A stretch of 64,000 nt of DNA from Pseudomonadota bacterium (GTDB lineage: Bacteria; Myxococcota_A; UBA9042): positions 426-64,425 of the forward strand of contig JBEARB010000067.1 of assembly GCA_041163625.1 (NCBI GenBank), in the 5' to 3' direction. Position 1 is the stretch's first letter. Each line of letters starts with the position of its first letter. Below the pieces are notes generated by a model. The model was not told the DNA's origin and did no database searches. It was given only the letters and a program-made list of their open reading frames with translations. Shown in pieces: positions 3-61,405 of the stretch. The position numbers and the translations under genes are program-made.

Positions 3-2750
3 TCCGCCGGTGGGGTCGACAGCGCGTCTGCCGCCGATGCGGTCGCCGCCGACGTCGACGCCCTCTCCGATGTCGGTGCGACCGACGCCCTCACCGACGT
101 CGCCGCGACCGACGCCGACGCCACGGTCGACGCCGTGGCCGACACGAGCAACGACGCGGCCGACGCCGCGACCACCGACGCCGACGCCGACACGGTCGCG
201 GACGCCGCCGCCGACGCGGACGCAGCTGCCGACGCGGTCGCTGACGCGGGGACCGACGCCGACGTCGAGGCCGATGCCGATGTGGTCGCAGACGCCGACA
301 CCGCCGATGCGACCGACGCCAACGACACCACCGACACCACCGACGCAGGCCCGCCCGATATCGGCCCGCCGGACATCAGCCCGCCCGACATCTGCGGCTG
401 CGCGGTCGACTCCGACTGCAGTGGCGCGCCGCCGGGGGGCTGTTTCGTCTCGCTCTGCGTCAGCTGCCAATGCCAGCTCGTGCCGCTCAAGGACGGCGCG
501 AAATGCGACGACGGCAAGGCCTGCACCACCGAGGACGTCTGCCTCGGCGGCACCTGCCAGGGCGAGACGGGCAGCTGCTTGCCGCCGCTGCCGGCGGGCC
601 TCGGCAATTCGCCCTGCAAGGTCGACGGGCTGCCGCCCAAGCCGAGCAAGCTCGCGCTCGCGCCCGCCTTCCCGAACCTCGCGTTCACCATGCCGGTCGA
701 GCTGACCACGCCGGGCGACGGCACCGACCGCGTCGCCGTCGTCGAACGCGCCGGCCGCCTGCGCGTCTTCGACAACGACGACAAGGTCTCCAGCGCCGCC
801 GAGTGGCTCGACCTGACCAGCCAGATCGACGCCGGCGGCGAGGGCGGCCTGCTCTCGGTCGCGTTCCACCCGAAGTTCGCGAGCAAGCGTCAGTTCTTCG
901 CCAACTACACGCGCAAGGGCGATTTCCACACCGTCGTCGCGCGCTTCGAACTGCCCGCGCAGGGCGGCGCCGCCCCGCTCGCCTCGCAGGTCGTGCTGCT
1001 CGACATCGCGCAGCCCTACAAGAACCACAACGGCGGCCAGCTCGCCTTCGACGCCGCCGGCATGCTGCTCGTCGGCATGGGCGACGGCGGCAGCGCCGGC
1101 GACCCGCTCGACGCCGGCCAGAACGGGCAGAGCCTGCTCGGCGCGATGCTGCGCATCGACGTCGACACCAGCGCCGGCGGCAAGGCCTACGGCATCCCGG
1201 CGGACAACCCCAGCAAGGGCTGGCTGCCCGAGATCTTCGCCATCGGCCTGCGCAACCCGTGGCGCTTCTCCGTCGACGCGAAGACCGGCGCCATCTGGGT
1301 CGCCGACGTCGGCCAGAACGCGTGGGAGGAGATCGACATCGTCCAGGCCGGCGGCAACTACGGCTGGCGCGTGATGGAGGGCAACCACTGCTACAAGCCG
1401 AGCAACTGCGATCCGAAGCCCTACGATCCGCCGGTCTTCGAATACGACCATGCGGCCGGCAAGTCCGTCACCGGTGGCCACGTCTATCGTGGCAGCAAGC
1501 AACCGTCGCTGGCCGGCCACTACGTCTTCGCCGACTACGCGACCGGCCGCTTCTGGACCCTCGCCCCCAACGCCAGCGGCGGCTACGACGCGACCGATCT
1601 CGGGGTGCTGCCGGTCAAGCCGGTCGATATCGGCCAGGACGAGCAGGGCGAACTCTACGCCGTACAGCTCTTCGGCAACACGATTCAACGCTTGGTGGTC
1701 GACACCAGCGGCCAGCCCGCCCCGCCGCCCGCCACGCTCTCGGCCACCGGTTGTTTCACCGACCTCGCCAAGCTGACCCCTGCCGCCGGCGTGCTGCGGT
1801 ACGAGGTCAACGCGCCGCTGTGGAGCGACGGCGCCGACAAGGCCCGCTTCTTGGTGCTGCCGAAGGGGCAGGGCGCCGCCCCCGTGGCGCCGGCGACGAT
1901 GCCGTCGGACGACTACGCCACCTTCGACGTCCCGGTCGGCACGCTGGTGCTCAAGCATTTCGGCCTCGGCCCCGGCAACGTCGGCAGCAACGCCAACGTG
2001 CCGGTCGAGACGCGCGTCATGCGCCGCGACCCGAACGGCTGGGTCTTTCTGACCTACCGCTGGCGCGCCGACGGCAGCGACGCCGACCTCGCGCTCGGCG
2101 GCGGCAGCTACGCCGTCACCTTGCCCGGCGGCGCCACGCAGACCTGGACCCAGCCCGCCGGCACCGACTGCGGAATCTGCCACCAAGGCCCCGGCGGGCC
2201 CGGATTGCTCGGGCTCTCGGCGGTGCAGCTCAACCGCAACGGCTTGTTCCCGCCCTCGCCGACGGCGCCCCCCTCGGTCTTCGCGAACCAGCTCGACACC
2301 TGGCAAGCCGGCGGCGCGCTGCAGGGCGTCGGTGCCGGCGGGGCGGCGACCCACGCGAGCTTCCCGGCGCAGGCGCTGCTGCCCAAGACCACCGATCCGC
2401 TCTCGCTGCAGGTGCACGCGCGGACGTGGATGCACGTGCAATGCGGCTCCTGCCATCGGCCGGGCGGCTCCTCGCAGGCCGACATCGACCTGCGCGCCAC
2501 CGCCAACCTCACGCAGCTCGCCGGCGGCAAGCCCAACGTCTGCGGCGCGCAGCCGGGCTTCGGGGACATGGGGATCGCGGGCGGTACCCTGATCGCACCC
2601 GGCAAGCCGGCCCAATCGGTGCTGCTCGCCCGCCTGCTCGCCGATCCGGGCAGCAGCGTCTTCATGCCGCCGCTCGGGGTCTCGGTGCCGCAACAAGCTG
2701 CGCTCGATCTGCTGCAAGCGTGGATCGGCCAGCTCGGCAGCTGCCCGTGA
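3..2750 (+). CDS. Exported multidomain dehydrogenase, 5' partial at the window edge. N-terminal acidic D/A/T low-complexity linker, then Cys-rich repeats, then a PQQ-dependent glucose/sorbosone dehydrogenase-like beta-propeller, then a C-terminal cytochrome c-like (PSCyt1-type) region with two CXXCH motifs.
   Basis: The frame is open from position 3, and the first in-window start codon is GTG at 135. The propeller carries GSDH-family motifs ([32 protein letters not shown]). The C-terminus has CGICH and CGSCH followed by a [10 protein letters not shown]...MPP...WIGQ pattern shared with two small lipoproteins in the window. The N-terminus has a [18 protein letters not shown] Myxococcus-type cysteine-rich repeat. 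GC at third codon positions is strongly high. Confidence 0.75.
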
Positions 2751-4525
2751 GCGACGCCAGCCACGACGCAGCGTCGGGCCTCCCACCCGGGCGCGCCGGG
2801 GTCGTCGCGGCGGTCGCGCTCCTCGGCGGCGTGCTCGCGGGGCTACGTCCGGTCGCCGGCCTCGATATCTGGTGGCATCTCCGCACCGGTGAGCGGCTCT
2901 GGCACCAAGCGGGCTGGCTCTCCGTCGAGCGCCTCTCCGACGGCGCTGCCGGCCGTCCCTGGCCCTACAAGGACATCGCGTCCGACGTCCTGCTCTACCT
3001 CGCCTACGCTGCCGGCGGCGACGCCGTGCTGTCGTGGCTGCCGGCGCTGGTGGCTGCGCTGCTCGCGGCGTCGTTGTGGGTCGGCACTCCCCGTCGCGCC
3101 GGCGGCACGGCGGTCTGGGCCGCGCTGGCCATCGCGGCGCTCGCCTCGATGCTCCACCGCCTGCACGCGCGGCCGATGCTCTTCTCACTGCTCGCGTTCG
3201 CCGCGCTGCTGCCGCTGTGCGAGCGTGGCCGCCGCGACGCGCGTTGGCAGGCGCAGGTCCCCGTCCTGCTGCTGCTGCTGGTCTGGGGCTGGCTGCATCG
3301 CGGCGTTCTTCTCGGCGTCGGCGTCGCCGCCGCGAGCGCCGCCGCCGTGACGGCATCGACCCCACTGCCGGGCCGGCTGCTCCGGGGCGTCGTGGTCTTG
3401 GTCCTCGGCGGGCTCGCTGCCGTCGCCAACCCCAACGGCCTCGCCACCCTCGCGACCGCGACCGCGTTGGTCGGCGGCGAGGCGTTCCGCGCGCACGTCT
3501 CGGAGTGGCAGGCGATGCCGCTCGACGTCTGGCTGCGGCACCACGGGACGCTGCTGGTGCCGGTCGTGGTCGCGTCGGCGGCCGTGGTCGCGGGCGTGCG
3601 GCGCGGGGGCTGGCAGGCCCTGGGCGATCCCTTCGCGCTCGTCCTCGCCCTCGGCACCCTCGCGCTCGCCGCCTCGAGCGCGCGCTACCTCCCCTACGCC
3701 GCGCTGGCCTCGGCGCGGGTCGCTCTGCTGCTGCTGCCGGCGACGCTGCCGGCCCGGATCTCCGGCGCCTTCGCGGCGCTGACCCTGGCGCTGCTCGGAT
3801 TCCTGGCGTGGGAGCGGCCCGCCTCGCCGCTCCGGCCCGATGGGGGCTTCGTCGGCCTCCAGGTCGACCGCTACCCCGGCGATGCGCTGGCCTACGCGCG
3901 CCGGGAAGCGCTCCCGGCCGAGGTCGAGAACGCCTACGATTTCGGCGGCTACCTGCTCTGGTTCGCGGACGGGTGGCTGCGGCCGAGCGTCGATGGCCGC
4001 GCCGATATGGTCTATGCCCCCGACGCCTTCGACCTCGCCCTGCGCGCCGAGCACGATCCGGAGGCCTTCGCGCGGCAGCAGGCGTTGCACGATCGCAGCT
4101 GGGTCCTCGCGCGGCAGGAGCCGGGCGGCCGCACGCACGGCTTCCTCGCGCGCGACCCTGGCTGGGCGCTGGTGTTCTGGAGCGAGCCGGCGGCGATCTT
4201 CGTCCGCTGCGACCGCCACGCCGCCCTCTGCGAACGCGACGGTCTGCGGCTGTTCCGCGGCGTGGCCCTCGACGCGCAGGCCTTCGCCCACGGCCGAGAC
4301 CCGAGCCGCCGCGAGCCCGCCCGCGCCGAGCTCGAACGAATGCGCGCGATGGCGCCGGGCAGCGTCCGCGTCCGCGTCGCCGAGGTCGTCCTGCACCACG
4401 CGGCCGGCGAACGAGCGCGGCGCGACGCGCTGCTCGAGGTGCTGGTGCGCGAGCACGGCGAGTCGATGGCCGTGCGGGCGCTGCTCGAGCGCCTCAGTCG
4501 GGCGGCGTCGGCGCCGGCGGAGTAG
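2747..4525 (+). CDS. Polytopic integral membrane protein, possibly a GT-C-type glycosyltransferase, with a C-terminal soluble domain.
   Basis: GTG 2747 overlaps the upstream TGA (GTGA). There are many hydrophobic helices (AAVALLGGVLAGL, LLLLLVWGWLH, VLVLGGLAAV) and codon usage is coding-like. I recognise no specific family. Confidence 0.5.
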   Translation: MSDASHDAASGLPPGRAGVVAAVALLGGVLAGLRPVAGLDIWWHLRTGERLWHQAGWLSVERLSDGAAGRPWPYKDIASDVLLYLAYAAGGDAVLSWLPALVAALLAASLWVGTPRRAGGTAVWAALAIAALASMLHRLHARPMLFSLLAFAALLPLCERGRRDARWQAQVPVLLLLLVWGWLHRGVLLGVGVAAASAAAVTASTPLPGRLLRGVVVLVLGGLAAVANPNGLATLATATALVGGEAFRAHVSEWQAMPLDVWLRHHGTLLVPVVVASAAVVAGVRRGGWQALGDPFALVLALGTLALAASSARYLPYAALASARVALLLLPATLPARISGAFAALTLALLGFLAWERPASPLRPDGGFVGLQVDRYPGDALAYARREALPAEVENAYDFGGYLLWFADGWLRPSVDGRADMVYAPDAFDLALRAEHDPEAFARQQALHDRSWVLARQEPGGRTHGFLARDPGWALVFWSEPAAIFVRCDRHAALCERDGLRLFRGVALDAQAFAHGRDPSRREPARAELERMRAMAPGSVRVRVAEVVLHHAAGERARRDALLEVLVREHGESMAVRALLERLSRAASAPAE

Positions 4526-8051: not shown

Positions 8052-9866
8052 CTAGCGCGGACCGGCCAACTCGACCAGCACCGCCTTCATCCGCGCGGCC
8101 GGATGATCCATCGCGGCGGAGCGATGCTGCAGCGCGGCGATCGGCCGGCCCGCGGTGCGGCACCCGTCGCGGATCATCTGCTCGAAGCGCCGCCGGTCCA
8201 CGCCCGCGTGGTTCACCGAGGCGAGCAGGGTGCCGCCCGGGGCGAGCAGCTCCAGCGCGGAGACGACCAGCTCGGCGTAGTCGCGGGCGGCCGAGAACCG
8301 GCGCTTGCGAACCCGCGCGTAGCTCGGCGGGTCGAGCACGACGATGTCGAAGCGGTCGCCGCGTCGCGCCAAGCGCGGCAGCCAATGGAAGACGTCGCCG
8401 CGGATGGTGTCGTGTCGCTCGGGATCGTCACGCCCGTTCAGCGCGAGGTTGCGCCGTCCACGCTCGAGCGCCCGCGCGCTCGCGTCGATCGAGACGGTGC
8501 GCCGCGCCCCGCCCACGGCCGCCGCCACCTGGAACGCGCAGGTATACGAGAACGTGTTGAGCACGCGCCGGTCGGCGGCGAACTCGCGCAGCCAGCGTCG
8601 ATTGTCGCGTTGGTCCAGGAACAGGCCGGTCTGCAGGCCGTCGGACAGGTCGACCCAATAGCGCACGCCGTCTTCCTCGACGATTCGCTCGCCGCCGGGC
8701 GCGGGTTCGGCGTCCGGCGCGACCCAGACCGGCGCCTTCGGCACCAGCCCGGCGGCGACCGCGTCGACCACGACGTTGGCCTGGCGCGGACGCAGCTTCA
8801 GCCACGCGCGCTGCAGGCCCAACTCGCGACACAGGCGTGCGGCATGGGCGCGATGCTGCTCGACGGCCGCCTTCAACGCCTCGGGCACCGCGGCGGCGGC
8901 GTCGGTGGTGGTCGCCGTCACGTCGGGCAGATCGCCGTAGACAGCGACCACGAGGTCGTCGCCGTAGCGCTCGAGGACCAGCTCGTGCTCGTCGTCGCGT
9001 AGCCGGATCGCGTCGCTGCGTCCGTGCGCGATGCCGTAGCGGCGCCGCAGCGCGCGGTCCATCCGCAGCGCGTCGCTCTCGGGCCGATCGTCGAGCCAAT
9101 GGGCGAACGCCGTGGGCGTGGGGGCCTGCACGGCGAGGCCCGGAGCGGTGATGGCGGCGCGATGCCAGATCCGGCGCCCTGCCTCGCCGCCGCGGCCGGC
9201 GCGCGGGTCCAGGGCGGGGCCGATCTCGTCGGTGTGGCCGACGCGCAGTCCGCGCCGACCGAGCAACTCGACCACGTCCATGCCGCCGGCGGCCGGCAGC
9301 CGCAGCTCGACCAGGGCACGGGGACCGAGCCCGCCGCGCGGCGGACGCGCCTCGACCAGCCGAGCTGCCACGCCCTCGGTGCGTAGGCCGGCGCACAACC
9401 CGGCCTCGGCGTCGCTGCCGGCGAGCGGCCAGCCCTGCACGCCGACCAGGTAGGTCGCGAGGACGTCGTCGCGGGCGAGCAGACGCGCCAGCTCCTCGGC
9501 GCGCGCCTCGTCCATCGCGACGAGCACCACGCCCGAGGCCAGCGCGTCGTCTTCGGCCCGGAGCTTGCCGCGACCGCCGACCCCGTCACCGACCACCCGC
9601 AGCGCCGCCACGCCGGCTGGGGCGAGGCCTGCCCGCGCCATCCGGGTGAGGACGTCGTTGCCGTCGGCGGGCTCGCTGCCGGGGCGAACGCGCCGCGGGG
9701 CCGCGACCTGGCTCGGCTTGTCCAGGGCGACGAAGGCGTCGGTGCGGTCCAGGCGCCAGCGGGTCGGGAGGTGCGGCCAGAGGGCGTCCACGCGCACGAT
9801 GGGGAGCTCCTTCGCGCCGTCGCGGCGCCGCTCCGTATGTTGATCACGCCATCGCGGCGTGTCCAC
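8052..9866 (-). CDS. Class I SAM-dependent rRNA (m5C) methyltransferase, RlmI/RlmK-like, with an N-terminal extension of about 300 aa resembling a degenerate RluA-type pseudouridine synthase.
   Basis: The C-terminal half (YWVDLSDGLQTGLFLDQRDNRRWL...TFSYTCAFQVAAA...FDIVVLDPPSY) matches RlmI/YccW methyltransferases. The N-terminal segments FVALDKP and ASGVVLVAMDEARAEELARLLARDDVLATYLVGVQG resemble RluA motifs, but the catalytic HRLD is not recognisable. Confidence 0.75.
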   Translation of the reverse strand: MDTPRWRDQHTERRRDGAKELPIVRVDALWPHLPTRWRLDRTDAFVALDKPSQVAAPRRVRPGSEPADGNDVLTRMARAGLAPAGVAALRVVGDGVGGRGKLRAEDDALASGVVLVAMDEARAEELARLLARDDVLATYLVGVQGWPLAGSDAEAGLCAGLRTEGVAARLVEARPPRGGLGPRALVELRLPAAGGMDVVELLGRRGLRVGHTDEIGPALDPRAGRGGEAGRRIWHRAAITAPGLAVQAPTPTAFAHWLDDRPESDALRMDRALRRRYGIAHGRSDAIRLRDDEHELVLERYGDDLVVAVYGDLPDVTATTTDAAAAVPEALKAAVEQHRAHAARLCRELGLQRAWLKLRPRQANVVVDAVAAGLVPKAPVWVAPDAEPAPGGERIVEEDGVRYWVDLSDGLQTGLFLDQRDNRRWLREFAADRRVLNTFSYTCAFQVAAAVGGARRTVSIDASARALERGRRNLALNGRDDPERHDTIRGDVFHWLPRLARRGDRFDIVVLDPPSYARVRKRRFSAARDYAELVVSALELLAPGGTLLASVNHAGVDRRRFEQMIRDGCRTAGRPIAALQHRSAAMDHPAARMKAVLVELAGPR

Positions 9867-9945
9867 CGTTCGGCGCGCAGGACTCGATTGACGCGGCCGC
9901 GAGGGTTGGCTACAACCCGCCGGCTCGCCCGACGTGGCGAGCGAC

Positions 9946-10022
9946 GCGCGGCTAGCTCAGTTGGATAGAGCGTTGGCCTCCGAAGCCAAAGGCCGCTGGT
10001 TCGAATCCAGCGTCGCGCGCCA
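9946..10022 (+). tRNA. tRNA-Arg (anticodon CCG).
   Basis: A manual cloverleaf fits. The acceptor stem GCGCGGC/GTCGCGC has one G-U pair. The D-arm is GCTC-AGTTGGATA-GAGC and the anticodon arm is TTGGC-CTCCGAA-GCCAA, giving anticodon CCG. The T-arm is GCTGG-TTCGAAT-CCAGC, followed by discriminator G and CCA. Confidence 0.9.
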
Positions 10023-10104
10023 CTCCCTCCCCCCCGTGCATCAAGACCTCGCTCGGCCAGCGCGTCGGGCCGGCGTCCGCTTGCGTTCGCGGAGGTAGCC
10101 GACC

Positions 10105-10689
10105 GTGCCAATCGATTGGTGTCGAACGAATCCACCGATGTGGACCCTCGCGGTCGCCGGCAAGCTCGATTTCACCTCGCTCAACGCCGACGTGATCCGC
10201 GGCGAGACCAGCTACGAGTTCCGGCGTCTGCGCGATACGTGCCTCGAGCGCGCGCGCTGGGCGCCGATCCTCACCGCCTACGGCCGCGTCCGCACCGGAT
10301 TCGACGTGCCGACCACGCAGCCCTAACGCTTCTTCGACGTCGACGGCCTCCTCGGCGCCGCGTGGGAGCTGATGCCCTGCCTACAAGTTTGCGCCGGCGC
10401 CGGCGCCAATATCGAGCTGCTCCGCGTCAACCCCGGCCCCTACCCGCGCTCGATGGTGCACATGGGCCTCATCCTCGAGCGCTACCCCGTCCTCACCATC
10501 GGGCAGAGCGAGCGCTTCCTGCAGCTCGAGGCCGATGTCCGCGGCGAGGGTCTCGGCGGCGACCAACGCTGGACCGCCTTCCTCGACGGCATCGTACTCG
10601 CGCGCCTGTTCGGCCCGCTGATGGTCTGCGGGCAATGCCAATGGTTCGGCATGCGCGCGGACGGGCCAACGCAGGACTTCGCCGGGCTA
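10105..10689 (+). pseudogene. Disrupted ORF remnant. Two same-frame, coding-like ORFs (10105..10326 and 10372 onward) are separated by an in-frame TAA and have no proper stop before running antisense into the next gene.
   Basis: Both pieces have high GC at third codon positions. They lie in the same frame (frame 1) and are interrupted at 10324..10326. The downstream frame loses codon bias where it overlaps the 3' end of the minus-strand lipoprotein gene. I recognise no homology. Confidence 0.3.
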
Positions 10690-13020
10690 GTAGGGGATCC
10701 GCGAGAGGTCGACGGCGATCCGCTGCCAATCGTAGCCGGTCGCCTCGTAGACCTGCTGCTCGATGCGGGCGCGGGTGGTGTCGTCGAGACCGCGACCGAC
10801 CGAGAGCGCGAGCACCCACCAATGCAGCTGCTCGTCCGGCTTGCGGGCGGACTCGGCGCGGCGCACGAAGCGCTGGCCGTGCGCCGCGAGCGGCGGCCAC
10901 ACCTTGGCGGCGACGGCGTCGAGCGCGCGGCCGAAGAGCTCGGCCTGCAGCGTGGCGTCGTCGGGGAGGGCGCTCTGGCGGGCGGCCTCGACCAGCTGGC
11001 CCTTGGCCGAGATTTCGGGAGTCTCGTAGTCGACTCGGACGTCCTCGAGTCGAAACTCGCCGTGCGCGAGCTCCTGTCCGCTGACGCGATCCTTCCAGCC
11101 GATCGAGAGATCGACGTCGATGCGCAGCTCGTGCACGACGACCTCGTAGGGGTAGTCCTTCCAGATCTCCTCGCGGAGCTTCGCGGGCGTCTCGCGCGCC
11201 TTGCGCTCGGCGGCGTCGAAGCGGCGCTGGCCCTCCTGCACGCGAGCGCGGGCGGCGTCGAGCGCCGGCGCGAGCTGGCGCAGCTCGTCGCTGATCTGCC
11301 GCGACTTCCCCACGTAGTAGTCGAGTTGCTTCTGCCAGCGCTTGGCGCCGTACGACTCCGCGCAGCGCGTCGAACCGTCCGGGCACGGCGCCGGCTTGCC
11401 GCGGTAGTGCTCGGCGTTCTCCGCGTCGATGCGGGCGCGGATCTCGGCGAGCTTGCGGTCGACCTCGGCCAGGCGCGTCTCGGCGTCGTCGGCCTTCTGC
11501 TGCAGCGGGCGCAGCTGGTCGGTGGCCAAGTTCAGCGCCGTCAGCGCGGCGGCTTGCTCGTTCTGCGCCGCCTGCCAAGCCGGATTCGCGGGGAACTCGA
11601 CGTGGTCGAGGATCTTCTTGCGGCGCTCTTCGCGGCGCTGCAGGCGGACGAGCTCCCACCGCGCGACGTCGACCTGGAGCGTGCCGTCGGCCGAGCGCGC
11701 CTCGCGCCCCGCAACGACCCGGACACCCGCCTCGCCGAGCGCCGTGTCCGCGAGACGCGAGGCGATCGCGTTCTGCAGTGCGGTCGTCAAGGTCCCGCGC
11801 ACCGGCTTGGGCACCGCCGGCGTCTGCACCGCGACCGCGTAGGTCCGCGCCGCCTCGATCGTCCGCACCGACGACTCCAGGCCCTTGCCGATCGCCTTGC
11901 TGGTGCCGCCGAGCGCCGCCGCCGTGCGCCACGCGATCAGCGCAGCGCCGAAGAGCTTGCGTGCCTGCAGCTTGCGCGCCGATTTCTCGAAGGCACCGAC
12001 GGCGGCCGCGTGCGCGCGGGCGTGGGCCTTGTCGAGCGCGGCCTGGAGCTTGGCGTCGTCGGTGCCGACCTCGGCCGCCTGTCGCAGCAGCAGGAGCGCG
12101 TCGCGGCGCTTGCGCGCCTTCTCCGCCGCCTTGGCCGCGTCGAGGTGGACCTTCACCCACGACGCACGGGCCTCGGAGCGTCCGCGCAGGGCAGCCTCGT
12201 GGTTCGGGTTCTGCGTCAGCGCCTCACCGAACGCCCGCAGCGCGCGGTCGAGTTGGCCAGCCTCGAGGGCGGCTTGGCCGGTGGCGACGAGGCTGTCGGC
12301 GTCGCCGGCGGCGCGCAACTGGTCGCGCAGCTCGACCCCGCCCTGAACGTCGGCGTCCCATCGTAGCGCCTCGTCGGCCAGGGCGGCCGCCGCAGCGGCA
12401 CCGGCGGTTGGCGCGGCGGCGCGTGCTTCGCCGATCAGGCGGCGGGCCAGTCCACGCCGAGCGCGGTCCCACAGCGCCTCGGTCTGCGGGTAGTCGCGTC
12501 GCCAAGCGCGCAGCGTGCGTGCGCGTCCGGCCGCGGCGCGGTACGCCGTGAGGTCCGACCCGTCGCCGGCTCCCTCGAGACCGGTCAGCACGCGCTCGAG
12601 CTCGCGCATCCCGTTCTCGATTTCGGTGCGCAGCGCAAGCAGCCGAGACAGCGCCGCGACGACCTTCGGATCGGCCGGGGCGTACGCGCGAGCGCGGCGG
12701 TAGTGATCCGCCGCGACCGAGAGGCTGTTCGCCTCGAAGGCGATGTCGCCCCGTCGGACCGCGTCGTGCGCGGCACGACGGCGCGCTTCGCGGCCGCGCT
12801 CTTCGGCGAGTCGGCCGTCGACGGTGGTGAGCCCTGCCCGGCGGGCCGCGTCGTCGTAGGCGCCGATGGCGGCGTCGTAGTTGCCCTCGGTCAGCGCGCG
12901 ATCGCCGCGACGCAGAGTCTCGCCGACGCCGCAGCCGGCGAGGATGGCCAGCAACGCCAGGGCGACGGGCAGTCGCTGCCGCGTGGCTCGCGGGAAGGGA
13001 AGGGCGCTCGTTCGGATCAT
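10687..13020 (-). CDS. Large lipoprotein with TPR-like repeats and long coiled-coil segments.
   Basis: The signal peptide plus lipobox is LAILAGCGVG. There are TPR-like helices (GNYDAAIGAYDDAARRAG, ALEAGQLDRALRAFGEALTQNPNHEAAL) and a heptad-rich central region. It is the last gene of the minus-strand signalling cluster. Confidence 0.75.
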   Translation of the reverse strand: MIRTSALPFPRATRQRLPVALALLAILAGCGVGETLRRGDRALTEGNYDAAIGAYDDAARRAGLTTVDGRLAEERGREARRRAAHDAVRRGDIAFEANSLSVAADHYRRARAYAPADPKVVAALSRLLALRTEIENGMRELERVLTGLEGAGDGSDLTAYRAAAGRARTLRAWRRDYPQTEALWDRARRGLARRLIGEARAAAPTAGAAAAAALADEALRWDADVQGGVELRDQLRAAGDADSLVATGQAALEAGQLDRALRAFGEALTQNPNHEAALRGRSEARASWVKVHLDAAKAAEKARKRRDALLLLRQAAEVGTDDAKLQAALDKAHARAHAAAVGAFEKSARKLQARKLFGAALIAWRTAAALGGTSKAIGKGLESSVRTIEAARTYAVAVQTPAVPKPVRGTLTTALQNAIASRLADTALGEAGVRVVAGREARSADGTLQVDVARWELVRLQRREERRKKILDHVEFPANPAWQAAQNEQAAALTALNLATDQLRPLQQKADDAETRLAEVDRKLAEIRARIDAENAEHYRGKPAPCPDGSTRCAESYGAKRWQKQLDYYVGKSRQISDELRQLAPALDAARARVQEGQRRFDAAERKARETPAKLREEIWKDYPYEVVVHELRIDVDLSIGWKDRVSGQELAHGEFRLEDVRVDYETPEISAKGQLVEAARQSALPDDATLQAELFGRALDAVAAKVWPPLAAHGQRFVRRAESARKPDEQLHWWVLALSVGRGLDDTTRARIEQQVYEATGYDWQRIAVDLSRIPY

Positions 13021-13110
13021 GGTCGGCTCCCGCGCGTGTGGCCCAGCGGCGGCGGGGAAGCTACGCAGCGGGCGCGAGGACCGTCAAGCACGACGCGATG
13101 TTCGGGCGCA

Positions 13111-14571
13111 TCAGCGGGTCGCGCGGGCCGCTGCCAGGGCCGCCTCGATCGCCTCGTGACCCGAGACCACCACGCAGGCGCCCGCCGCGACCCCGTCGAG
13201 TACCCCGAACCGGTCGCCGCCGTCTTCGCCGAGCGCGACCTCGCGGCGGACGAACGCCTCGGCGCCGACGGCCTCGAAGACCCAGCGCTCGGCGCCACGA
13301 CGGATAGCCGCCGCGCGCACCATCGACAGCGTCGGATTCGCGGCCCCGAAGCGCAACAGCGCGCGCGTGCGCTGCCCCATCACCAGCCCGTGCCCCGGCG
13401 GCAACGCCGCGACCAGTCGATAGCCCGACTCGACCCGGACCAACTCGGCTTCGAGCACCAGCGGCGCCGCGACCTCGTCGGTCAGCACGAGGTCCACGCG
13501 CCCGACCGCGGACGCGTCGGCCGACAGCCCCAGACGCCCCAATTCCCGGGCCTGCAGCGGCAAGCCGACGCCCAGGGCGTCTCGGCGTCCCCACTGCAGC
13601 AACGGCGCTCCGGCTCGCACCCGCGCGCCCGGCCGGACCTGCACCGCGGCGACCACCCCGTCGTCGGGCGCGTGCAGCGCCAGCAGCGACGTCGGCGCGT
13701 CGTCGGGCCCCGCGGGCCGCCAAGGCGCGGGTACGCCGTCGCGCGGGACGGGCCGGTCCGGCAGGAGCGTCAGCAGCGCCTCGCCGGCCGTGGTGTTCGC
13801 GCCGCCGCGGGCGAAGGTCTCGCCCGCCCGCGCGACGCGACCGGCGACCGGCGACCGGACGGCCATCGGGGCCAACGCCTCGACCTCCACCTCCACCGAC
13901 TCGCCCCGTCGCAGCGGCGCCTCGGCGACCGGTTCGCAGCGCACGTCGGCGCGCACCTGCTCGGACCAGCCGAGCCGGAACGCGCCTTCGGTCCGCCGTG
14001 CCGGGCGTCGCTCCAACGGCACCGCCAGCACCCGCGTGCCGACGTCCGGGACCCGCAAGGTCAGCAAGCAGGGCAGGGTCGATAGCCGCACTCGGCCGTG
14101 GAAGAGCCCGTCGGCCCCGACGCGGGCGACCTCGTGTTCGTCGCGGTCGTCGCGGCAGCCCAAGCGCAGCGTGAGTGGTCCTTCGGCGGGGTGCGAGGGC
14201 GCGCCGGCGGCCCAGCCGACGTGGACGCCCGTGGTGGCGCCCGCCTCGACCCGATCGACACGGACCCAGACTCGCTGGCCGGCGTCCCGCAGCACGCGAT
14301 CCAGCGCCGCCGGCGGAAGCGGCCGCGCCGTGGCGGCCGCCTCGCGAGGTGGTGGTTTCGCCGGGGTCGGCGATCTGACCGCCGGGCGGGGCGCCTCCTC
14401 GGGCCCCGCCGCGCCCGCCCCGACCCGAATCTCGCCGGCCGTCGCCGCGGGCGGCGGTGGGGCCTCGGCGGGGCGGCAGCCGGGCGACATCAGCGCCGCA
14501 GCCCAGCCCAACGCCGCCAGCCGGAGGGGCCGGAACGCGGCGATGCCGGGGCGTCTCGTCGGCTCGCTCAC
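13111..14571 (-). CDS. Membrane-fusion-protein (HlyD/RND periplasmic adaptor) family lipoprotein with a Pro-rich linker.
   Basis: GTG 14571 overlaps the upstream stop (GTGA). The N-terminus is hydrophobic and followed by a PPPP linker. Biotin-lipoyl-like hairpin motifs are present (MAVRSPVAGRVARAGE, ALHAPDDGVVAAVQVRPGARVRAGAPLL). The C-terminus, WVFEAVGAEAFVRREVALGEDGGDRFGVLDGVAAGACVVVSG, is typical of MFPs. Confidence 0.7.
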   Translation of the reverse strand: MSEPTRRPGIAAFRPLRLAALGWAAALMSPGCRPAEAPPPPAATAGEIRVGAGAAGPEEAPRPAVRSPTPAKPPPREAAATARPLPPAALDRVLRDAGQRVWVRVDRVEAGATTGVHVGWAAGAPSHPAEGPLTLRLGCRDDRDEHEVARVGADGLFHGRVRLSTLPCLLTLRVPDVGTRVLAVPLERRPARRTEGAFRLGWSEQVRADVRCEPVAEAPLRRGESVEVEVEALAPMAVRSPVAGRVARAGETFARGGANTTAGEALLTLLPDRPVPRDGVPAPWRPAGPDDAPTSLLALHAPDDGVVAAVQVRPGARVRAGAPLLQWGRRDALGVGLPLQARELGRLGLSADASAVGRVDLVLTDEVAAPLVLEAELVRVESGYRLVAALPPGHGLVMGQRTRALLRFGAANPTLSMVRAAAIRRGAERWVFEAVGAEAFVRREVALGEDGGDRFGVLDGVAAGACVVVSGHEAIEAALAAARATR

Positions 14572-15545
14572 GGGGCGTCGGGGCCGTCGGTCGCGTCGAC
14601 CGCGTCGTCCGGGGTGTCCGATCGCGCGTCCATCTTCAGCAGCCGCACGCGGTCGCCGCCGGCACGGGCGGCCTCGTTGGCGGCGCGCTCGAGGACCGCA
14701 GCGATCACGTCGACATCGGGGATGTCCTCGGGGGCGTCGCACGGCAGGCCGAACGCACCGATGCTGCAGGTCACGGCGACGCGGCCCTGACTGGTCACCA
14801 CCGAATCGCTCCGGATCGCGGCCAGCAGGCGCTCGGACAGCGCGCCGAGTTGGTCGATCTTGCAACCGGGCAGCACGGCGAGGAACTCCTCGACCCCCCA
14901 CCGACCGAAGCTGTCGTAGCGCCGCAGCACGCGCCGTAGCCGCGCGGCAATCGTCGTCAGCACCGCGTCGCCGGCCTCGTGGCCGAACACGTCGTTGAAG
15001 GCGCGGAACTGGTCCACGTCGATGAGCAGCAAGCCGATGGGGGCCGCCATGCGCTTGCCGCGCGCGAGCTCGTCCTGCAGCCGTTCGGTGATGGCCCGAC
15101 GGTCGGCCAAGCCGGTGAGTAGGTCGACCCGGCTGCGGCCGATCAACTCGGCTCGCAGGCGAAGGACCTCCATCCGCGCGGCCTGGGTTCGCATCCCGAT
15201 CCGCAGGCGGAGCTCGAGCTCGTCCAGGCGCAGGGGCTTCTCGATCAGATCGTCCGCGCCGACGGTCAGCGCCGTCCGAGCCGCCTCGCGCTCACCGGGC
15301 GCTGCGGTCAGCAGCACGTACGGGGCGCGCGGGCCCAAACTGCGCAGGCGCCGCGCGAGGTCGACGCCGTCGACGCCATCGGCGCGCCAGTCGAGGATGG
15401 CGAGAGCGGGCAGCGGTTCCCGAGCGAACCGGGCCAACGCTTCCTCGCCGTCTGCGAAGGTCTCGAACGCGTGGCCGGCGCGGCCGAGCGCCTCGTGCAG
15501 CAGGACGCGAGCGACGGGATCGGCGTCGACCACCACCGCCCTCAT
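14568..15545 (-). CDS. Response regulator with REC and GGDEF domains; the diguanylate cyclase active-site motif is the non-canonical GVEEF.
   Basis: The REC domain is canonical (VVVDAD, phosphoacceptor ILD, LLTAAP, DLIEKP). An RRYD I-site lies five residues before GVEEF, in place of GG(D/E)EF. The ATG overlaps the Hpt stop codon (ATGA). Confidence 0.85.
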   Translation of the reverse strand: MRAVVVDADPVARVLLHEALGRAGHAFETFADGEEALARFAREPLPALAILDWRADGVDGVDLARRLRSLGPRAPYVLLTAAPGEREAARTALTVGADDLIEKPLRLDELELRLRIGMRTQAARMEVLRLRAELIGRSRVDLLTGLADRRAITERLQDELARGKRMAAPIGLLLIDVDQFRAFNDVFGHEAGDAVLTTIAARLRRVLRRYDSFGRWGVEEFLAVLPGCKIDQLGALSERLLAAIRSDSVVTSQGRVAVTCSIGAFGLPCDAPEDIPDVDVIAAVLERAANEAARAGGDRVRLLKMDARSDTPDDAVDATDGPDAP

Positions 15546-15904
15546 GCGCCGTCCCCGTCCCGCCAAACCTGCAACTCGGCTTGCACCGCCTGCACGGCCA
15601 CTTCGAGCTCGGACACCTGCGCGATGGCCCCGGCGGCATCGCCACGACGGGCGGCTTGTTCCACCGCGGACGCCAGCTTCCAGCTCGGTCCGGTCGTGAA
15701 GTTCGAGAGCGAGCCCTTGAGCGCGTGCGCGCAGTCGGCCAGTGTAGCGATATCGCCTGCGCCTGCCGCGTCACGGACCGCCGCGATGCGGGTCGGCAGG
15801 TGCGTCAGCATCACGCCGACCAGCTGCGTGAGGGCCCCGTGATTGCCGTGGATGCGGGCGAGCAGCCCGTCGAGGTCCAGCCCCGTGTCCTGTGGGTCGG
15901 CCAT
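15542..15904 (-). CDS. Histidine phosphotransfer (Hpt) domain protein.
   Basis: The 120-aa protein carries CAHALKGSLSNF, which matches the Hpt consensus HxLKGS with a conserved His. Confidence 0.8.
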   Translation of the reverse strand: MADPQDTGLDLDGLLARIHGNHGALTQLVGVMLTHLPTRIAAVRDAAGAGDIATLADCAHALKGSLSNFTTGPSWKLASAVEQAARRGDAAGAIAQVSELEVAVQAVQAELQVWRDGDGA

Positions 15905-15951
15905 GCTTGCCCCTCCTTTCCTCGCTTCGGGACGGTGGCCGCCCCGCGGCG

Positions 15952-17121
15952 CTAGTGCGGCCGCTTCATGTGCCGCATCCCGGGGGGAGGCGCGACTACA
16001 CCGGCCAGCGTGACACGAATCGACTCGGACGTCGCCTCCAGCCGCGGTCGGAAATCACGCAAGAGTTCGGTCGCAGTCAACCGATCGCCGGCCGCGCAGC
16101 GGGTGCCGAGCTCCAAGGCAGCGGTGGAGAGCGCGCGCAGGCCGATTCCCGCCAAACTCGCGCCGAGGGTGCGCGCCGCACGCGCTGCGGCCGCGAGGTC
16201 TCCACGCGCGAGCCCGCCGGCGACCTCGCCGAGCAGCGGCAAAGCCTTGGAACCGACCTCGGAGAGCAATTCGCGCGCGAAGTCTTCGTCCGATCCGACG
16301 TGGGCGGCGATGCGGTCGAGTTCGAGCACGGCGGTCGGCTCGCGCTGCGGTTCGCGTCGCCCGCTGCGCAGCTGCGGCAGCACGCGCATCAAGGTGGCTT
16401 CGTCCAGCGGGCCGATCGCGATCTCGTCGACCGGCACGTCCGACGGCAGTCCGGCCGAGGACGCGGCTGCATCCATCACCGCCAAGACCGGTGGGCGACG
16501 TCCCGGCAGCAGGTCCGCGGTCGCCGACTGAAGCCACGCGCGCGGGTCGTCGAACGTGCCGGCATCGAGCACGAGCAGGTCGGCGCTCTCGAGGTCGGTG
16601 CCATCGACGACGCGATGCCCCATCCGCTCGAGGGCCTCGATGGTCACTCTCAGCTCTCGGCCGCGGACGGCGATCTGCAGGCGCCGCCGCGATTCGCGGA
16701 GGAAATGCCGCGTGACCAGGGGCTCTTCGGAGCTCTTGGAGACATGGCGTCGCAGGCTGCCACCGAGATCGCCCAGCGCGCGCAGGGCATCGGCCACGTC
16801 GCGATCCGAGCATGGATGAAACAAGTAGGCCGCCAGCCCCGCCGTCCGACAGACGGCCGCGTCGCCACGGTGTCCGTTGCGGACCATCAGCCCGATCGGC
16901 ACGCGCTCCTCGGCGCGCACGGTGGTGACCAGATCCTGTACCTGGGCTCGGCCGCGCGCAGTGGAGAGCGGGGCGCAGACCAACACGGCGTCGAAGGGTT
17001 GCTGTCGGAGCAGGCCTCGCGCCGCGGTCTGCGTGGTGCAGGGCGCCACCCGGATGCCGATGCGGTGGAGCTGCTCGATGACCTCCTCGATCGGTTCCTC
17101 GGTCGGTGCGTAGAGGAGCAC
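15952..17121 (-). CDS. Pseudo-phosphorelay scaffold: two receiver-like domains, the first lacking the phosphoacceptor Asp, plus a C-terminal Hpt-like domain in which the His is replaced by Arg.
   Basis: The first REC-like region has FDAVLVCAPL, with C/A at the phospho-Asp position. The second has ADLLVLDAG. The C-terminal region, AARAARTLGASLAGIGL, aligns to the Hpt HxLKGS motif with R for H. The start is uncertain. GTG 17121 is preferred because the upstream 54 codons are Arg-rich, and the ORF could extend to 17283. Confidence 0.5.
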   Translation of the reverse strand: MLLYAPTEEPIEEVIEQLHRIGIRVAPCTTQTAARGLLRQQPFDAVLVCAPLSTARGRAQVQDLVTTVRAEERVPIGLMVRNGHRGDAAVCRTAGLAAYLFHPCSDRDVADALRALGDLGGSLRRHVSKSSEEPLVTRHFLRESRRRLQIAVRGRELRVTIEALERMGHRVVDGTDLESADLLVLDAGTFDDPRAWLQSATADLLPGRRPPVLAVMDAAASSAGLPSDVPVDEIAIGPLDEATLMRVLPQLRSGRREPQREPTAVLELDRIAAHVGSDEDFARELLSEVGSKALPLLGEVAGGLARGDLAAAARAARTLGASLAGIGLRALSTAALELGTRCAAGDRLTATELLRDFRPRLEATSESIRVTLAGVVAPPPGMRHMKRPH

Positions 17122-17484
17122 GTCCGCGAACAGCCAGGGTCCGTCGTCGTCGTGTGCAGCACCTGCCGCAGCCGTCCCGCGTCGCCGCGGACCGTCTCGG
17201 GGACGTCCGGCGCGATGCTCAGGTGCAGCTCGACGCCTTCCCGGGTGGCGCGTGGCCGCTCCCCTGGTCGGTCGCGAGCGCATCCAGACGTTCGAGCAGG
17301 GTCGCGCGGCGGATGGCGACGTCGGGGCTGGACTTCATGCGTAGATCCTACGCCAGAACATGGCGCGATCGTCCTCTCCGACGACCACGACGTCAAGGCG
17401 CGGAACTGGCGGCCCCGGCGGCCCTTGCTACCATGCGACGGATTCCCCGCGGCGCGGCCGGCCCGTGCCGCGCGTGAGGTCCGG

Positions 17485-19242
17485 ATGCGTCGTCGCCCGA
17501 TTTCGTTCGACCTGCTGGCAGCCGCCGCTGCGATCTTCGCCGTGGTGGCGTGCGGGCCGAGCCAGGAGGGGCAGACGCCGGGCGGCGGCGGTGGCGTCGT
17601 GCTCGGCGACGACGTGCTTGCCCAAGACGTCGCCGGCACCAAGGACGGTTCGGGTGGCGGCAAGTTGCCGCCCTGCGGGACCGACGCGGACTGCGAGCTG
17701 CAACTCGTCACCGAGGGCTGTGAACGCGCGCGCTGCCTCGCCGGCAAATGCGTCCTCGGCACGGCCCTCGACGGGGAGAGCTGCCAGGACGGCGACGCCT
17801 GCACCCTCGAGGATCGGTGCCTCGGCGGCACGTGCCTGCCCGGATCGCCGCGGGTCTGCGACGACGACAACCCCTGCACCGCCGACAGCTGCGCGCCCGC
17901 CGACGGCGCCTGCGTCGCGGTGCCCGTCGACGGCGCCTGCCCGGCCGGCGGCGGCTGCGCGCTCGGCGTCTGCAAGGCGGGCAGCTGCGCCGTGGTCGAC
18001 GCCTACCCGAGCGTGGACCTCGCCGGCGACGCCACCGTCGCCACGCGCGGCGTCGCCGTCGGCAGCCAGCGTCTGCTGGTGGTGTCCGGGCCCGTCGGGT
18101 CGCCGTTCTCGCCGCGGCCCTTCGCCGGCGCGATGCACTGGCTCGACCGCGCCGGCGTGCCCGTCGCCACGCTGCCGACCGCCGCGACCCGGCTCGACGA
18201 CGCCGTCGCGCTGCCCGACGGCGGCTTCGTCTTGGTCGGGGCGCTGCCCCAGCAGGCGACGATGACGGCGCCGGGCGACCTGTCCGACGGTGCCCTCGTC
18301 CGCACCGATGCTCAGGGCACGGTGCTGTGGACGGTCGGCTACGGCACGCCCGCGCGCGACGCGCTGGTGGCCGTCGATCGCCGCGGCGACGGCGGGTTGG
18401 TCGCCGTCGGCGCGCGGCACATCGCGCACGACGGCGAGCCGGGCTTGGCCGAAGGCTGGCTGCTGCTGCTCACCGCCGGTGGGCAGATCACCCTCGACTA
18501 CCACTACGCGAGCCCACAGCCGCTGCTGCTGCGGGACGTCGCGGCGGTCGGCAACGCGGCGGTGGTCGCCGGCTGGCAGCAGGTCGACGCGGGCCACCGC
18601 GCCGGTCTGCTGATGCGCGTCGGCGCGGGCGCGGGAATCGAGAAGGTTCGTCAACTCGGCGTCGGCGCGGCGGCTGTCGCGGTGCTGTACGACGCGGCCC
18701 ACGGTCGGGTGGTGGCGGCGCTCGCGCCCGACCCGGGCGGCGACGGCGCCGGCGCGGTCTGGGTCGGCGACCTCGAGCTCGAGACGCTCGCGAAGGTCAG
18801 CACCGCGCCGCTGCACGTCGGCGCAGATCGCTTCGTTCCCGTAGGCTTGCAGCCCGGCGTCGGCGGCTGGCGGCTGGTCGGCACGCGCGGCGTCGGCACC
18901 ACGCTGGTCGCCGGGCTGGGGCCCTTCGCGGCGCTGCAGTGGTGGCGCGAGGTGCCGACGTTGAGCGGTCCGGCGTGGGTCGCGAGCGACGCCGGCGCGC
19001 TCTGGCTGGCCGGTGCGGCGCCCTCGACCTCCGCGCCGCGGCTTTGCCGCGTCGACGGCTTCGGCTATAGCGCTTGCACCACGGCCGGTGCGTGCGCGGC
19101 CGAGGCGGCCACGGGGTGCGACGACGGCGACCCCTGTTCGGCCGATTCATGCGAGCCGATCGCCGGTTGCGTCCACGACGCGCTCGGCGACGGCACTGTC
19201 TGCGGGGTCGCCAAGACCTGCGCCCTCGGCGTCTGTCCCTAG
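17485..19242 (+). CDS. Lipoprotein with N-terminal Myxococcus-type cysteine-rich repeats and a C-terminal beta-propeller-like domain.
   Basis: ATG 17485 is followed by the signal peptide plus lipobox AVVACG. The repeats are CQDGDACTLEDRCLGGTC and CDDDNPCTADSCAPADGAC, and similar repeats recur at the C-terminus. It ends 23 bp before hisG. Confidence 0.75.
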   Translation: MRRRPISFDLLAAAAAIFAVVACGPSQEGQTPGGGGGVVLGDDVLAQDVAGTKDGSGGGKLPPCGTDADCELQLVTEGCERARCLAGKCVLGTALDGESCQDGDACTLEDRCLGGTCLPGSPRVCDDDNPCTADSCAPADGACVAVPVDGACPAGGGCALGVCKAGSCAVVDAYPSVDLAGDATVATRGVAVGSQRLLVVSGPVGSPFSPRPFAGAMHWLDRAGVPVATLPTAATRLDDAVALPDGGFVLVGALPQQATMTAPGDLSDGALVRTDAQGTVLWTVGYGTPARDALVAVDRRGDGGLVAVGARHIAHDGEPGLAEGWLLLLTAGGQITLDYHYASPQPLLLRDVAAVGNAAVVAGWQQVDAGHRAGLLMRVGAGAGIEKVRQLGVGAAAVAVLYDAAHGRVVAALAPDPGGDGAGAVWVGDLELETLAKVSTAPLHVGADRFVPVGLQPGVGGWRLVGTRGVGTTLVAGLGPFAALQWWREVPTLSGPAWVASDAGALWLAGAAPSTSAPRLCRVDGFGYSACTTAGACAAEAATGCDDGDPCSADSCEPIAGCVHDALGDGTVCGVAKTCALGVCP

Positions 19243-27799: not shown

Positions 27800-27987
27800 G
27801 CGGGCTCCGGGGGGCCGCGCAGCGCGGCGAGAGCCTAGAATGCGGCGGCTGTGAACGGCATGCAAATCTCGCGCTCTCACGTCGACGTTCGGTGTCGGTT
27901 CGACGCCTCCGAGGGCGGGTCCGGGTTGTTCGGTGCCGGGCCATCGTCCATCCTTGCGACCGTTCGGCCCGCTACCGGAGGGAGCTC

Positions 27988-37843: not shown

Positions 37844-37889
37844 CGCGCGAGCTTGCCACGGCCCCGCCGGCGCGCGCTATGCTCCGGCC

Positions 37890-43556: not shown

Positions 43557-43657
43557 GAGGCCTCGTCCGGGGCGTGGACGCACGCCCCCGGCCGTGAGTA
43601 TTCGTGAGCCTGTGCGGAAAGACAAAAGCCTTGTTCGAACAGGGTGCTCGGAAACGG

Positions 43658-61370: not shown

Positions 61371-61375
61371 CGATT

Positions 61376-61382
61376 CCCTCCC
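61376..61382 (-). promoter_or_regulatory. Shine-Dalgarno sequence (GGGAGGG) for the AsmA-like gene.
   Basis: The reverse complement of ccctccc at 61376..61382 lies 6 nt upstream of the TTG start at 61370. Confidence 0.4.
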
Positions 61383-61405
61383 GACGCGATGGCGCGCGCG
61401 CGACC

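Follow-up and report, generated by a model that had tools for sequence, protein, structure and literature searches.

Signalling-gene decay beside two lipoprotein genes: a proposed lineage-specific phosphorelay with a candidate c-di-GMP receptor

The described systems closest to the locus treated here are response regulators of the PleD and WspR type, which join a receiver (REC) to a GGDEF domain, degenerate GGDEF proteins, the kinases RetS, DivL and ShkA, and periplasmic adaptors such as AcrA, CusB/SilB and HlyD. The locus itself is a cluster of five genes on the minus strand of a 64,000-nucleotide stretch of DNA (positions 426 to 64,425 of contig JBEARB010000067.1, assembly GCA_041163625.1)—hereafter the window—with a G+C content of 73%. 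The genes encode a large protein with receiver-like and histidine phosphotransfer (Hpt)-like domains, first described as a scaffold, a stand-alone Hpt, a REC-GGDEF response regulator, a lipoprotein resembling membrane fusion proteins (MFP), and a tetratricopeptide repeat (TPR)/coiled-coil lipoprotein. In alginate secretion, Alg44 and AlgK likewise bring together cyclic di-GMP (c-di-GMP) sensing, a TPR lipoprotein, and a periplasmic domain that resembles MFPs; Alg44, however, holds its PilZ sensor and its MFP-like domain in one membrane-spanning protein, with a synthase and a porin alongside, and none of these is present in the window cluster. The degenerate GGDEF proteins PopA, PelD, CdgA, FimX, and SgmT act as c-di-GMP receptors, and the active non-canonical active sites (A-sites) AGDEF and SGDEF differ from the canonical motif at the first position only (PMC3974145). 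In ShkA—which has a separate Hpt, ShpA—the α4-β5-α5 face of the pseudo-receiver and the linker serve c-di-GMP binding and autoinhibition (PMC6969517).

We see about an even chance that the cluster is a lineage-specific, partly decayed phosphorelay, in which the Hpt charges a REC-GVEEF protein that senses rather than makes c-di-GMP. A relay of hybrid kinase, Hpt, and REC-GGDEF protein would have lodged directly upstream of a TPR/coiled-coil lipoprotein gene that is older than the relay. Here, two deletions, each of which shifts the frame, left a 39-codon open reading frame (ORF) and a remainder ORF without a Shine-Dalgarno sequence. The working parts would be the Hpt, REC-GVEEF, and the MFP-like lipoprotein, presumably translated as a coupled unit. 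An unlinked hybrid kinase would charge the Hpt, which would pass its phosphate to Asp52 of REC-GVEEF, whose GGDEF domain—going by its motifs—would no longer be a cyclase and would bind c-di-GMP at RRYD. REC-GVEEF might hereby integrate phosphorylation and c-di-GMP and act by protein contacts, like receptors of the PopA, PelD, and SgmT type, and the kinase remnant would be a weakly expressed accessory at best and may be a pseudogene. Both lipoproteins would be periplasmic or at the outer membrane, their expression tied to the relay by operon position, with a promoter of its own in addition for the TPR gene. Overall, the cluster is a case of signalling-gene decay beside lipoproteins and not a new signalling-to-secretion machine, and the current understanding of c-di-GMP or two-component signalling is unchanged by it.

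The large protein had been described as a kinase-less scaffold of catalytically dead domains. This part of the initial annotation is to be revised: by its alignments, the scaffold is the surviving 3' part of a pseudo-hybrid histidine kinase of about 745 aa that relatives keep whole, left over from two frame-shifting deletions and without its recognisable ribosome-binding site. Full-length orthologues of 728–750 aa occupy the same position, from the Cys-rich lipoprotein gene to the Hpt gene, in the lineages that we label L003, L008, and L009. They are laid out as dimerisation and histidine phosphotransfer domain (DHp), HATPase_c, pseudo-receiver, linker, receiver-like, and Hpt-like domain. The HATPase_c domain of the orthologues scores 36–44 bits, whereas the window keeps merely a 38-residue out-of-frame relic of this ATPase domain (CA). 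The remnant—pseudo-receiver 1, linker, receiver-like domain 2, and Hpt-like domain—is 50% identical to residues 334–733 of the 744-aa L003 protein, with the match limited to the last ~400 residues. A tblastn search with the same L003 protein places its residues 1–27 at 17338..17258 (63% identity) and its residues 196–233 at 17264..17151 (63% identity), the latter in a frame that differs from those of the leader and of the scaffold ORF. As read from this comparison, the two deletions, of ~168 and ~115 codons, took the DHp and most of the CA domain.

The source assembly was also recovered as JGI sample 3300043420 and as one Logan assembly, making three assemblies in all. The relic region is base-for-base identical in these two other assemblies, which otherwise differ by a few single-nucleotide polymorphisms; the truncation is therefore real, and an assembly artefact is rejected as its cause. 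In both, the 39-codon ORF at the ancestral start is annotated as a 39-aa gene, by two independent callers. A Shine-Dalgarno sequence is found neither before ATG 17283 nor before GTG 17121, and ATG 17283 is probably not the real start because its first ~50 codons are out-of-frame relic sequence. HisKA, HATPase_c, resistance-nodulation-division (RND), ATP-binding cassette (ABC), and outer-membrane factor (OMF) domains were not found in any ORF called across the 64-kb window, where the domain check for the stretch of his genes was taken from the annotation of the source contig. The lack of a histidine kinase and of a pump, ABC, or RND partner, both recorded initially, is thus upheld, and the kinase is missing because the kinase-like part was deleted.

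The loss of catalytic residues from this protein, as first described, survives closer alignment. Cys103 occupies the Asp column of receiver 1, and Arg371 occupies the His column of the Hpt-like domain, where it aligns with the His of the true Hpt that is fused to the L017 protein (41 bits in Pfam). Receiver 2 retains an Asp and is without the acidic pair and the Lys. In relatives, the receiver-1 column is filled by C, A, or V and the Hpt-like column by R, with D/Q in L009 and a true His in L017 and L096; the H-box His column of the full-length orthologues holds R, Q, or G (ARELEPP, AQELEAP, CGELEGP), and L017 reads SREVHAP. Pfam matches to the scaffold as a single sequence are below threshold (Response_reg 14 bits, Hpt 11.8 bits); a five-sequence profile, set against solved structures, finds a receiver (E=6.8e-7), an Hpt (E=3.8e-5), and the tandem receivers of PleD (E=4e-4). 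The kinase-like proteins are 29–51% identical between lineages without frameshifts—the window branch being slightly accelerated relative to L003—which argues for long purifying selection on a pseudo-enzyme. Since the REC, Hpt, and GGDEF substitutions are shared across such lineages, these data point to dead sites that are old and clade-wide and not to an alignment artefact. The alignments establish that the kinase-like protein lost its H-box His and its receiver-1 Asp clade-wide, and its Hpt His in the sub-clade of the window.

Two stretches of the protein are the most conserved, the linker LVTRHFLRESRRRL and the receiver-1 α4-β5-α5 segment (GHRGDAAxCRxxGxxAYLxxP). Among solved structures, the kinase core of the orthologues is nearest to the GacS/RetS type (RetS E=3e-23), with DivL as a further match. 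Their order of DHp, CA, pseudo-receiver, linker, and receiver, with a separate Hpt, is similar to that of ShkA and ShpA (PMC6969517), and their conservation peaks on the same elements as those used by ShkA, the pseudo-receiver α4-β5-α5 face and the linker. However, all phospho-sites of the window's large protein are missing, and, with the DHp and CA domains gone, RetS-like heterodimerisation is impossible in this genome. We considered whether the pseudo-receiver holds a specific c-di-GMP site of the ShkA type and dropped the idea, as ShkA (Rec1) is absent among the profile matches; the likeness is an analogy only. As a separate observation, four of the five orthologues that are full-length or nearly so, namely L003 (residue 113), L009, L017 (5' end cut), and L096, carry a His 7–8 residues upstream of the H-box position, two helical turns away on the same face. 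L008 has an Arg there, and the region is deleted in the window. This His may be a phospho-acceptor that has shifted, or it may be coincidental.

The stand-alone Hpt is bona fide, as annotated: it scores 37.1 bits with Pfam Hpt against a cut-off of 24.6, and the His of its AHALKGS motif is invariant in five lineages. The response regulator scores 106 bits for GGDEF and 62.8 bits for Response_reg, with PleD as the best solved-structure match (E=4e-31). It shares with PleD/WspR-type cyclases the domain order, the receiver catalytic residues, and the RxxD spacing. In alignment with PleD D1, D7/D9, D52, Thr, and K103-P all fall into place as an intact phospho-acceptor set, and RRYDSFGRWGVEEF aligns to PleD RAIDLPCRYGGEEF, so that R359xxD362 of the PleD inhibitory site (I-site) is kept as RRYD, five residues before the A-site. 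It differs from these cyclases in bearing one receiver instead of the PleD tandem pair, in an Asp for the guanine-contacting Asn335 (LTGLADRR versus LTGLHNRR), and in its A-site, where GVEEF aligns to GGEEF of PleD as a G369V change; the equivalent of Asp344 (FND) is kept. The solved PleD structure hereby confirms the GVEEF A-site and the retained RxxD that had been read from the window. Among the REC-GGDEF orthologues, the A-site is GAEEF or DGAEF, with GGEEF in L014, L017, and L096. RxxD is present in every orthologue, and the Asn335 equivalent is Asp in every GxEEF orthologue.

The conserved pair of GxEEF and RxxD supports a c-di-GMP receptor, as does the restriction of published active variants to the first A-site position. 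The non-canonical A-site with retained RxxD is also the feature set of the degenerate-GGDEF receptors PopA, PelD, SgmT, and CdgA (PMC3974145). The window protein differs from them in that its receiver keeps all phospho-acceptor residues and its motif is off at one or two positions, with c-di-GMP binding here predicted. Several points weigh against a receptor charged by the Hpt. The adjacent receiver is without its Asp in L009 and carries Glu in L017 and L096, and hence Hpt-to-receiver transfer is not constant in the family. No phosphodonor kinase lies within the 64 kb examined, and the remnant ORF may still be made and used because it stays open with conserved blocks. In addition, an A-site changed at its second position (V or A) could retain activity.

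Accordingly worth weighing, if unlikely in our judgement, is that REC-GVEEF acts as an active non-canonical diguanylate cyclase, switched on by Hpt-dependent phosphorylation and subject to feedback inhibition at RRYD. Such an enzyme could draw on an intact receiver, the Mg/catalytic EE, the D344 equivalent, and the I-site, all of which are kept, and V or A at A-site position 2 is under selection across lineages; the Asn335 equivalent, however, is also Asp in every GxEEF orthologue, and L009 has drifted further, to DGAEF, yet keeps RxxD, as a receptor would be expected to do. Activity is known for natural enzymes with AGDEF and SGDEF (PMC3974145), but the known active variants alter the first Gly and not the second. 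In the regulators of L017 and L096, Glu at the phospho-acceptor (IVEW) goes with a canonical GGEEF, the reverse of the window, where Asp is kept and the A-site is degenerate.

Gene context was read for eleven lineages, anchored on the TPR gene; identities given here are to the window TPR protein. The window carries truncated kinase, Hpt with its His, REC(Asp)-GVEEF, MFP, and TPR genes. L003 (69%) and L008 (49%) bear a full pseudo-kinase, Hpt, REC-GAEEF, MFP, and TPR, and L006, with ~82% nucleotide identity to L008, has intact Hpt, MFP, and TPR genes next to out-of-frame relics of kinase and REC-GGDEF. L009 (39%) encodes a pseudo-kinase, Hpt, a pseudo-REC-DGAEF with RxxD, MFP, TPR, and an Agd3-like deacetylase. 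In L017 (34%), a pseudo-kinase with fused true Hpt is followed by REC(Glu)-GGEEF, a short MFP-like lipoprotein, and TPR; L096 (36%) is the same minus the MFP gene. L014 (34%) has hisG, a canonical REC-GGEEF that is frameshifted, and TPR. The TPR gene stands alone in L097 (32%), with a divergent PAS hybrid kinase nearby, and in L012, L015, and P0032 (27% each).

In this set, the gene directly before the TPR gene encodes a REC-GGDEF protein in 7 of 11 lineages, and the MFP-like gene, present in 5 of 11, is the member whose presence varies most. From this distribution, the TPR gene is the old anchor of the locus. That it might be a mere neighbour was rejected, as in L014, L017, and L096 a REC-GGDEF gene adjoins the TPR gene whether or not an MFP gene is there. 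A constant pairing of MFP and TPR genes with the relay, the prospect raised in the initial annotation, does not exist: the MFP gene is absent in L096 and L014, and the TPR gene is solitary in distant relatives. A metagenome scan with the kinase alignment returned many unrelated contigs on which a canonical hybrid kinase, with fused or separate Hpt, is immediately followed by a REC-GGDEF gene whose product is 33–39% identical to that of the window; no MFP or TPR gene was found near these trios. Because so many contigs carry the canonical arrangement, the module is, as judged from sequence relationships, a degenerate offshoot of the common hybrid kinase, Hpt, REC-GGDEF trio.

Some phospho-site or catalytic site has been lost in every lineage, and two lineages bear fresh destructive deletions. 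The reduction of kinase and REC-GGDEF to relics in L006, with Hpt, MFP, and TPR retained, speaks for decay by repeated loss. Whether this extends to the whole signalling part, which would then be non-functional debris in the course of being lost beside lipoprotein genes that alone matter, is doubtful. At 35–60% identity and in intact frames, the Hpt His, RxxD and, here, the full receiver catalytic set are conserved, and both 4-nt overlaps have been maintained, as has the strong Shine-Dalgarno sequence of the Hpt gene—this despite independent destructive deletions (here in the kinase core, in L006 in kinase and REC-GGDEF), a frameshifted REC-GGEEF in L014, and at least one relay phospho-site missing in every lineage. 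The partly decayed relay that we favour would make this locus and its relatives a multi-step phosphorelay at several stages toward phosphorylation independence, and then breakdown. The losses differ by lineage (kinase His, receiver Asp, Hpt His, cyclase A-site), deletions of entire domains come next, and the I-site and one Hpt His persist. This series could help decide which parts of pseudo-kinases and pseudo-receivers are retained for function.

The five minus-strand ORFs are confirmed at their coordinates and show a coding signal in codon-position G+C (GC3). Two of the four junctions overlap by 4 nt as initially described: ATGA at 15542..15545 joins the Hpt stop to the REC-GGDEF start, and GTGA at 14568..14571 joins the REC-GGDEF stop to the MFP-like start. 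The coupling of all genes that had been claimed ends there, since 47 nt that include a strong Shine-Dalgarno sequence separate the scaffold from the Hpt gene, and 90 nt that include a conserved promoter-like element separate the MFP-like from the TPR gene. By this layout, the translationally coupled set is the Hpt, REC-GVEEF, and MFP-like genes only; the REC-GGDEF/MFP overlap is found again in L003 and L008. CTTGAC is the sole invariant block of the pre-TPR gap across five lineages, with the conserved form CTTGAC(G)-N18-TAGCTT, and the element also precedes the TPR gene of L096, which has no MFP gene. The TPR gene is thus probably served by a promoter of its own, and read-through may occur as well. 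A consensus promoter and terminator scan of 9800..17800 gave nothing useful and no terminator-like hairpin in the 90-nt gap; it missed the element because the −10 matches at 3 of 6 positions, and the element was found by comparing lineages.

The MFP-like protein consists of a signal peptide with Cys32, a Pro/Ala-rich linker, a variable N-terminal β domain, and putative split lipoyl, β-barrel, and membrane-proximal domains. Its assignment as an HlyD-family adaptor holds for the HlyD_3 match (33.6 bits, cut-off 22.2) and is weakened by TIGR01730, which at 41.8 bits stays below its cut-off of 94.9, and by the missing α-hairpin. AcrA and SilB are weak best matches in the PDB. The hairpin is lacking because the lipoyl half-motifs are only ~25 Pro-rich residues apart; the AlphaFold2 (AF2) model is all-β and poor, with a predicted local distance difference test score (pLDDT) of 48, has no long helices, and is unusable for structure search. 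Lipidation and, by prediction, split lipoyl, β-barrel, and membrane-proximal domains are shared with AcrA, CusB/SilB, and HlyD, whereas the α-hairpin is not, and no transporter or outer-membrane factor is nearby in five lineages; a cognate inner-membrane transporter was found near the MFP-like gene neither in the window nor in L003, L006, L008, L009, or L017. True homologues amount to only a handful among 5.8 billion proteins.

The TPR/coiled-coil lipoprotein of the initial annotation has a lipobox whose Cys30 is invariant in the family together with Cys546 and Cys553; the TPR models of Pfam are all below the gathering score, the best reaching 20.8 bits. The AF2 model (mean pLDDT 85) predicts a helical solenoid (32–390), an α/β domain, a hairpin, and a helical C-terminus. 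The hairpin would be an antiparallel coiled coil of ~58 residues (480–538, 563–619) with the Cys546/Cys553 loop at its tip. Foldseek with this model returned generic TPR proteins only, at low TM-scores, and the C-terminal half has no Pfam or PDB match, a profile search giving coiled-coil noise only. An exhaustive profile search puts the family at about 25–30 full-length clusters; a 24-sequence profile in a word-indexed homologue search added no further members, and a first metagenome scan with the TPR alignment gave no matches. Two uncharacterised lipoprotein families are hereby defined in one uncultured high-GC lineage, one of ~780 aa with TPR and coiled coil, the other MFP-like without hairpin, and the repeated adjacency to a c-di-GMP regulator offers a starting hypothesis for their role.

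The initial annotation saw the output of the signalling module in an envelope-spanning MFP/lipoprotein assembly. The sequence gives no support for this. As both envelope proteins are lipoproteins and the cluster encodes no protein that spans the inner membrane, the sequence shows no physical route from the relay to them. This missing inner-membrane component also makes it improbable that the dead relay proteins—remnant, Hpt, and REC-GVEEF—form a dedicated scaffold complex with an MFP-like/TPR envelope assembly as output. Such a complex could explain why the REC-GGDEF/MFP overlap is conserved in three lineages and why a REC-GGDEF gene immediately precedes the TPR gene in seven, and the remnant is best conserved at the receiver-1 α4-β5-α5 face and linker, which would suit an interaction or ligand surface; yet L096 and L014 have no MFP-like gene, the TPR gene bears its own promoter-like element and is solitary elsewhere, and the scaffold, truncated in the window, has been lost altogether from L006. 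Very unlikely is the more elaborate possibility that the two lipoproteins make a two-piece periplasmic adaptor, with the TPR hairpin, a disulfide loop at its tip, supplying in trans the missing MFP hairpin, under a pseudo-cyclase that senses phosphorylation and c-di-GMP, and with the remnant as a second, ShkA-like sensor of c-di-GMP by way of its conserved pseudo-receiver face and its Arg-rich linker. Table 1 lists the features of the cluster and its surroundings.

Table 1. Positions of the cluster genes, kinase relics, and neighbouring features in the window
Feature	Position	Strand	Remarks
Cys-rich-repeat (Dicty_CTDC) lipoprotein	17482..19242	+	divergent; Dicty_CTDC 45 bits (Pfam), signal peptide, lipobox FAVVAC
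Ancestral kinase start relic	17219..17338	-	ATG 17338 after AGGA; 27 homologous residues, out-of-frame stretch, stop
Relic leading into ATPase (CA) N-box (GDAGRLRQVLHT)	17151..17264	-	third frame, between both deletion junctions
Scaffold (kinase remnant), longer ORF	15952..17283	-	ATG 17283 start
Pseudo-hybrid kinase remainder	15952..17121	-	389 aa from GTG 17121; 443 aa from ATG 17283
Cys103 of remnant	16975..16977		receiver-1 Asp column
Conserved linker of remnant	16678..16719		LVTRHFLRESRRRL
Arg371 of remnant	16171..16173		Hpt-like His column
Stand-alone Hpt	15542..15904	-	120 aa; His60 in AHALKGS; strong AAGGAGG ribosome-binding site
REC-GGDEF response regulator	14568..15545	-	325 aa; intact receiver; RRYD and GVEEF at 14883..14924
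MFP-like lipoprotein	13111..14571	-	486 aa; HlyD_3 match; lipobox Cys32
Promoter-like element	13058..13087	-	TTGACG-N18-TAGCTT; 90-nt gap before TPR gene
TPR/coiled-coil lipoprotein	10687..13020	-	777 aa; lipobox Cys30; AF2 helical solenoid
Possible insertion remnant	10023..10686		~660 bases
tRNA-Arg(CCG)	9946..10022	+	downstream of TPR gene
REC-HD_5 regulator	26693..28000	-	HD-GYP-type
Ppx/GppA phosphatase	27739..28929	+	adjoins REC-HD_5 gene

The Dicty_CTDC lipoprotein gene adjoins the cluster in L003, L006, L008, and L009 and is absent in L012, L014, and L015. It accompanies the form of the module with a stand-alone Hpt and is not found beside solitary TPR genes.

On the other side of the cluster, the L003 tRNA follows ~30 nt after the TPR stop, and the extra bases of the window intervene at this place. 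They have a coding-like G+C on the plus strand and a short minus-strand ORF starting MPNHWH, like an IS200/RAYT-type HUH motif, and may be an insertion remnant at the tRNA. A candidate c-di-GMP phosphodiesterase, the REC-HD_5 regulator, is encoded ~9 kb from the cluster; apart from it and the cluster itself, no gene related to c-di-GMP was seen in the window. The window also holds long ORFs (500–1440 aa) with a strong coding signal and no Pfam match at E<=0.001, and one very large protein with 10 Dicty_CTDC repeats; together these lie at 39366..43700 (-), 57255..61580 (-), 61406..63679 (-), 2561..4525 (+), and 37872..39383 (+).

Among the relatives, L009 alone carries the Agd3-like polysaccharide deacetylase (CBM87_Agd3 and Agd3_CE, 12584..14752) directly downstream of the TPR gene, a possible exopolysaccharide link or a coincidence. 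L006 (12465..20580) and L008 (12362..about 20900) bear an extra opposite-strand block of ~8.5 kb between the TPR and methyltransferase genes, which encodes an OmpA-domain protein, DUF4407, asparagine synthase, and others and is missing from the window and L003. The L008 contig CAZPHC010000002.1 (75% G+C, syntenic) carries the title 'uncultured Enterobacteriaceae bacterium', which is almost certainly a wrong taxonomic label; the records of L003 and the window are labelled 'Deltaproteobacteria bacterium' and 'Pseudomonadota bacterium', respectively.

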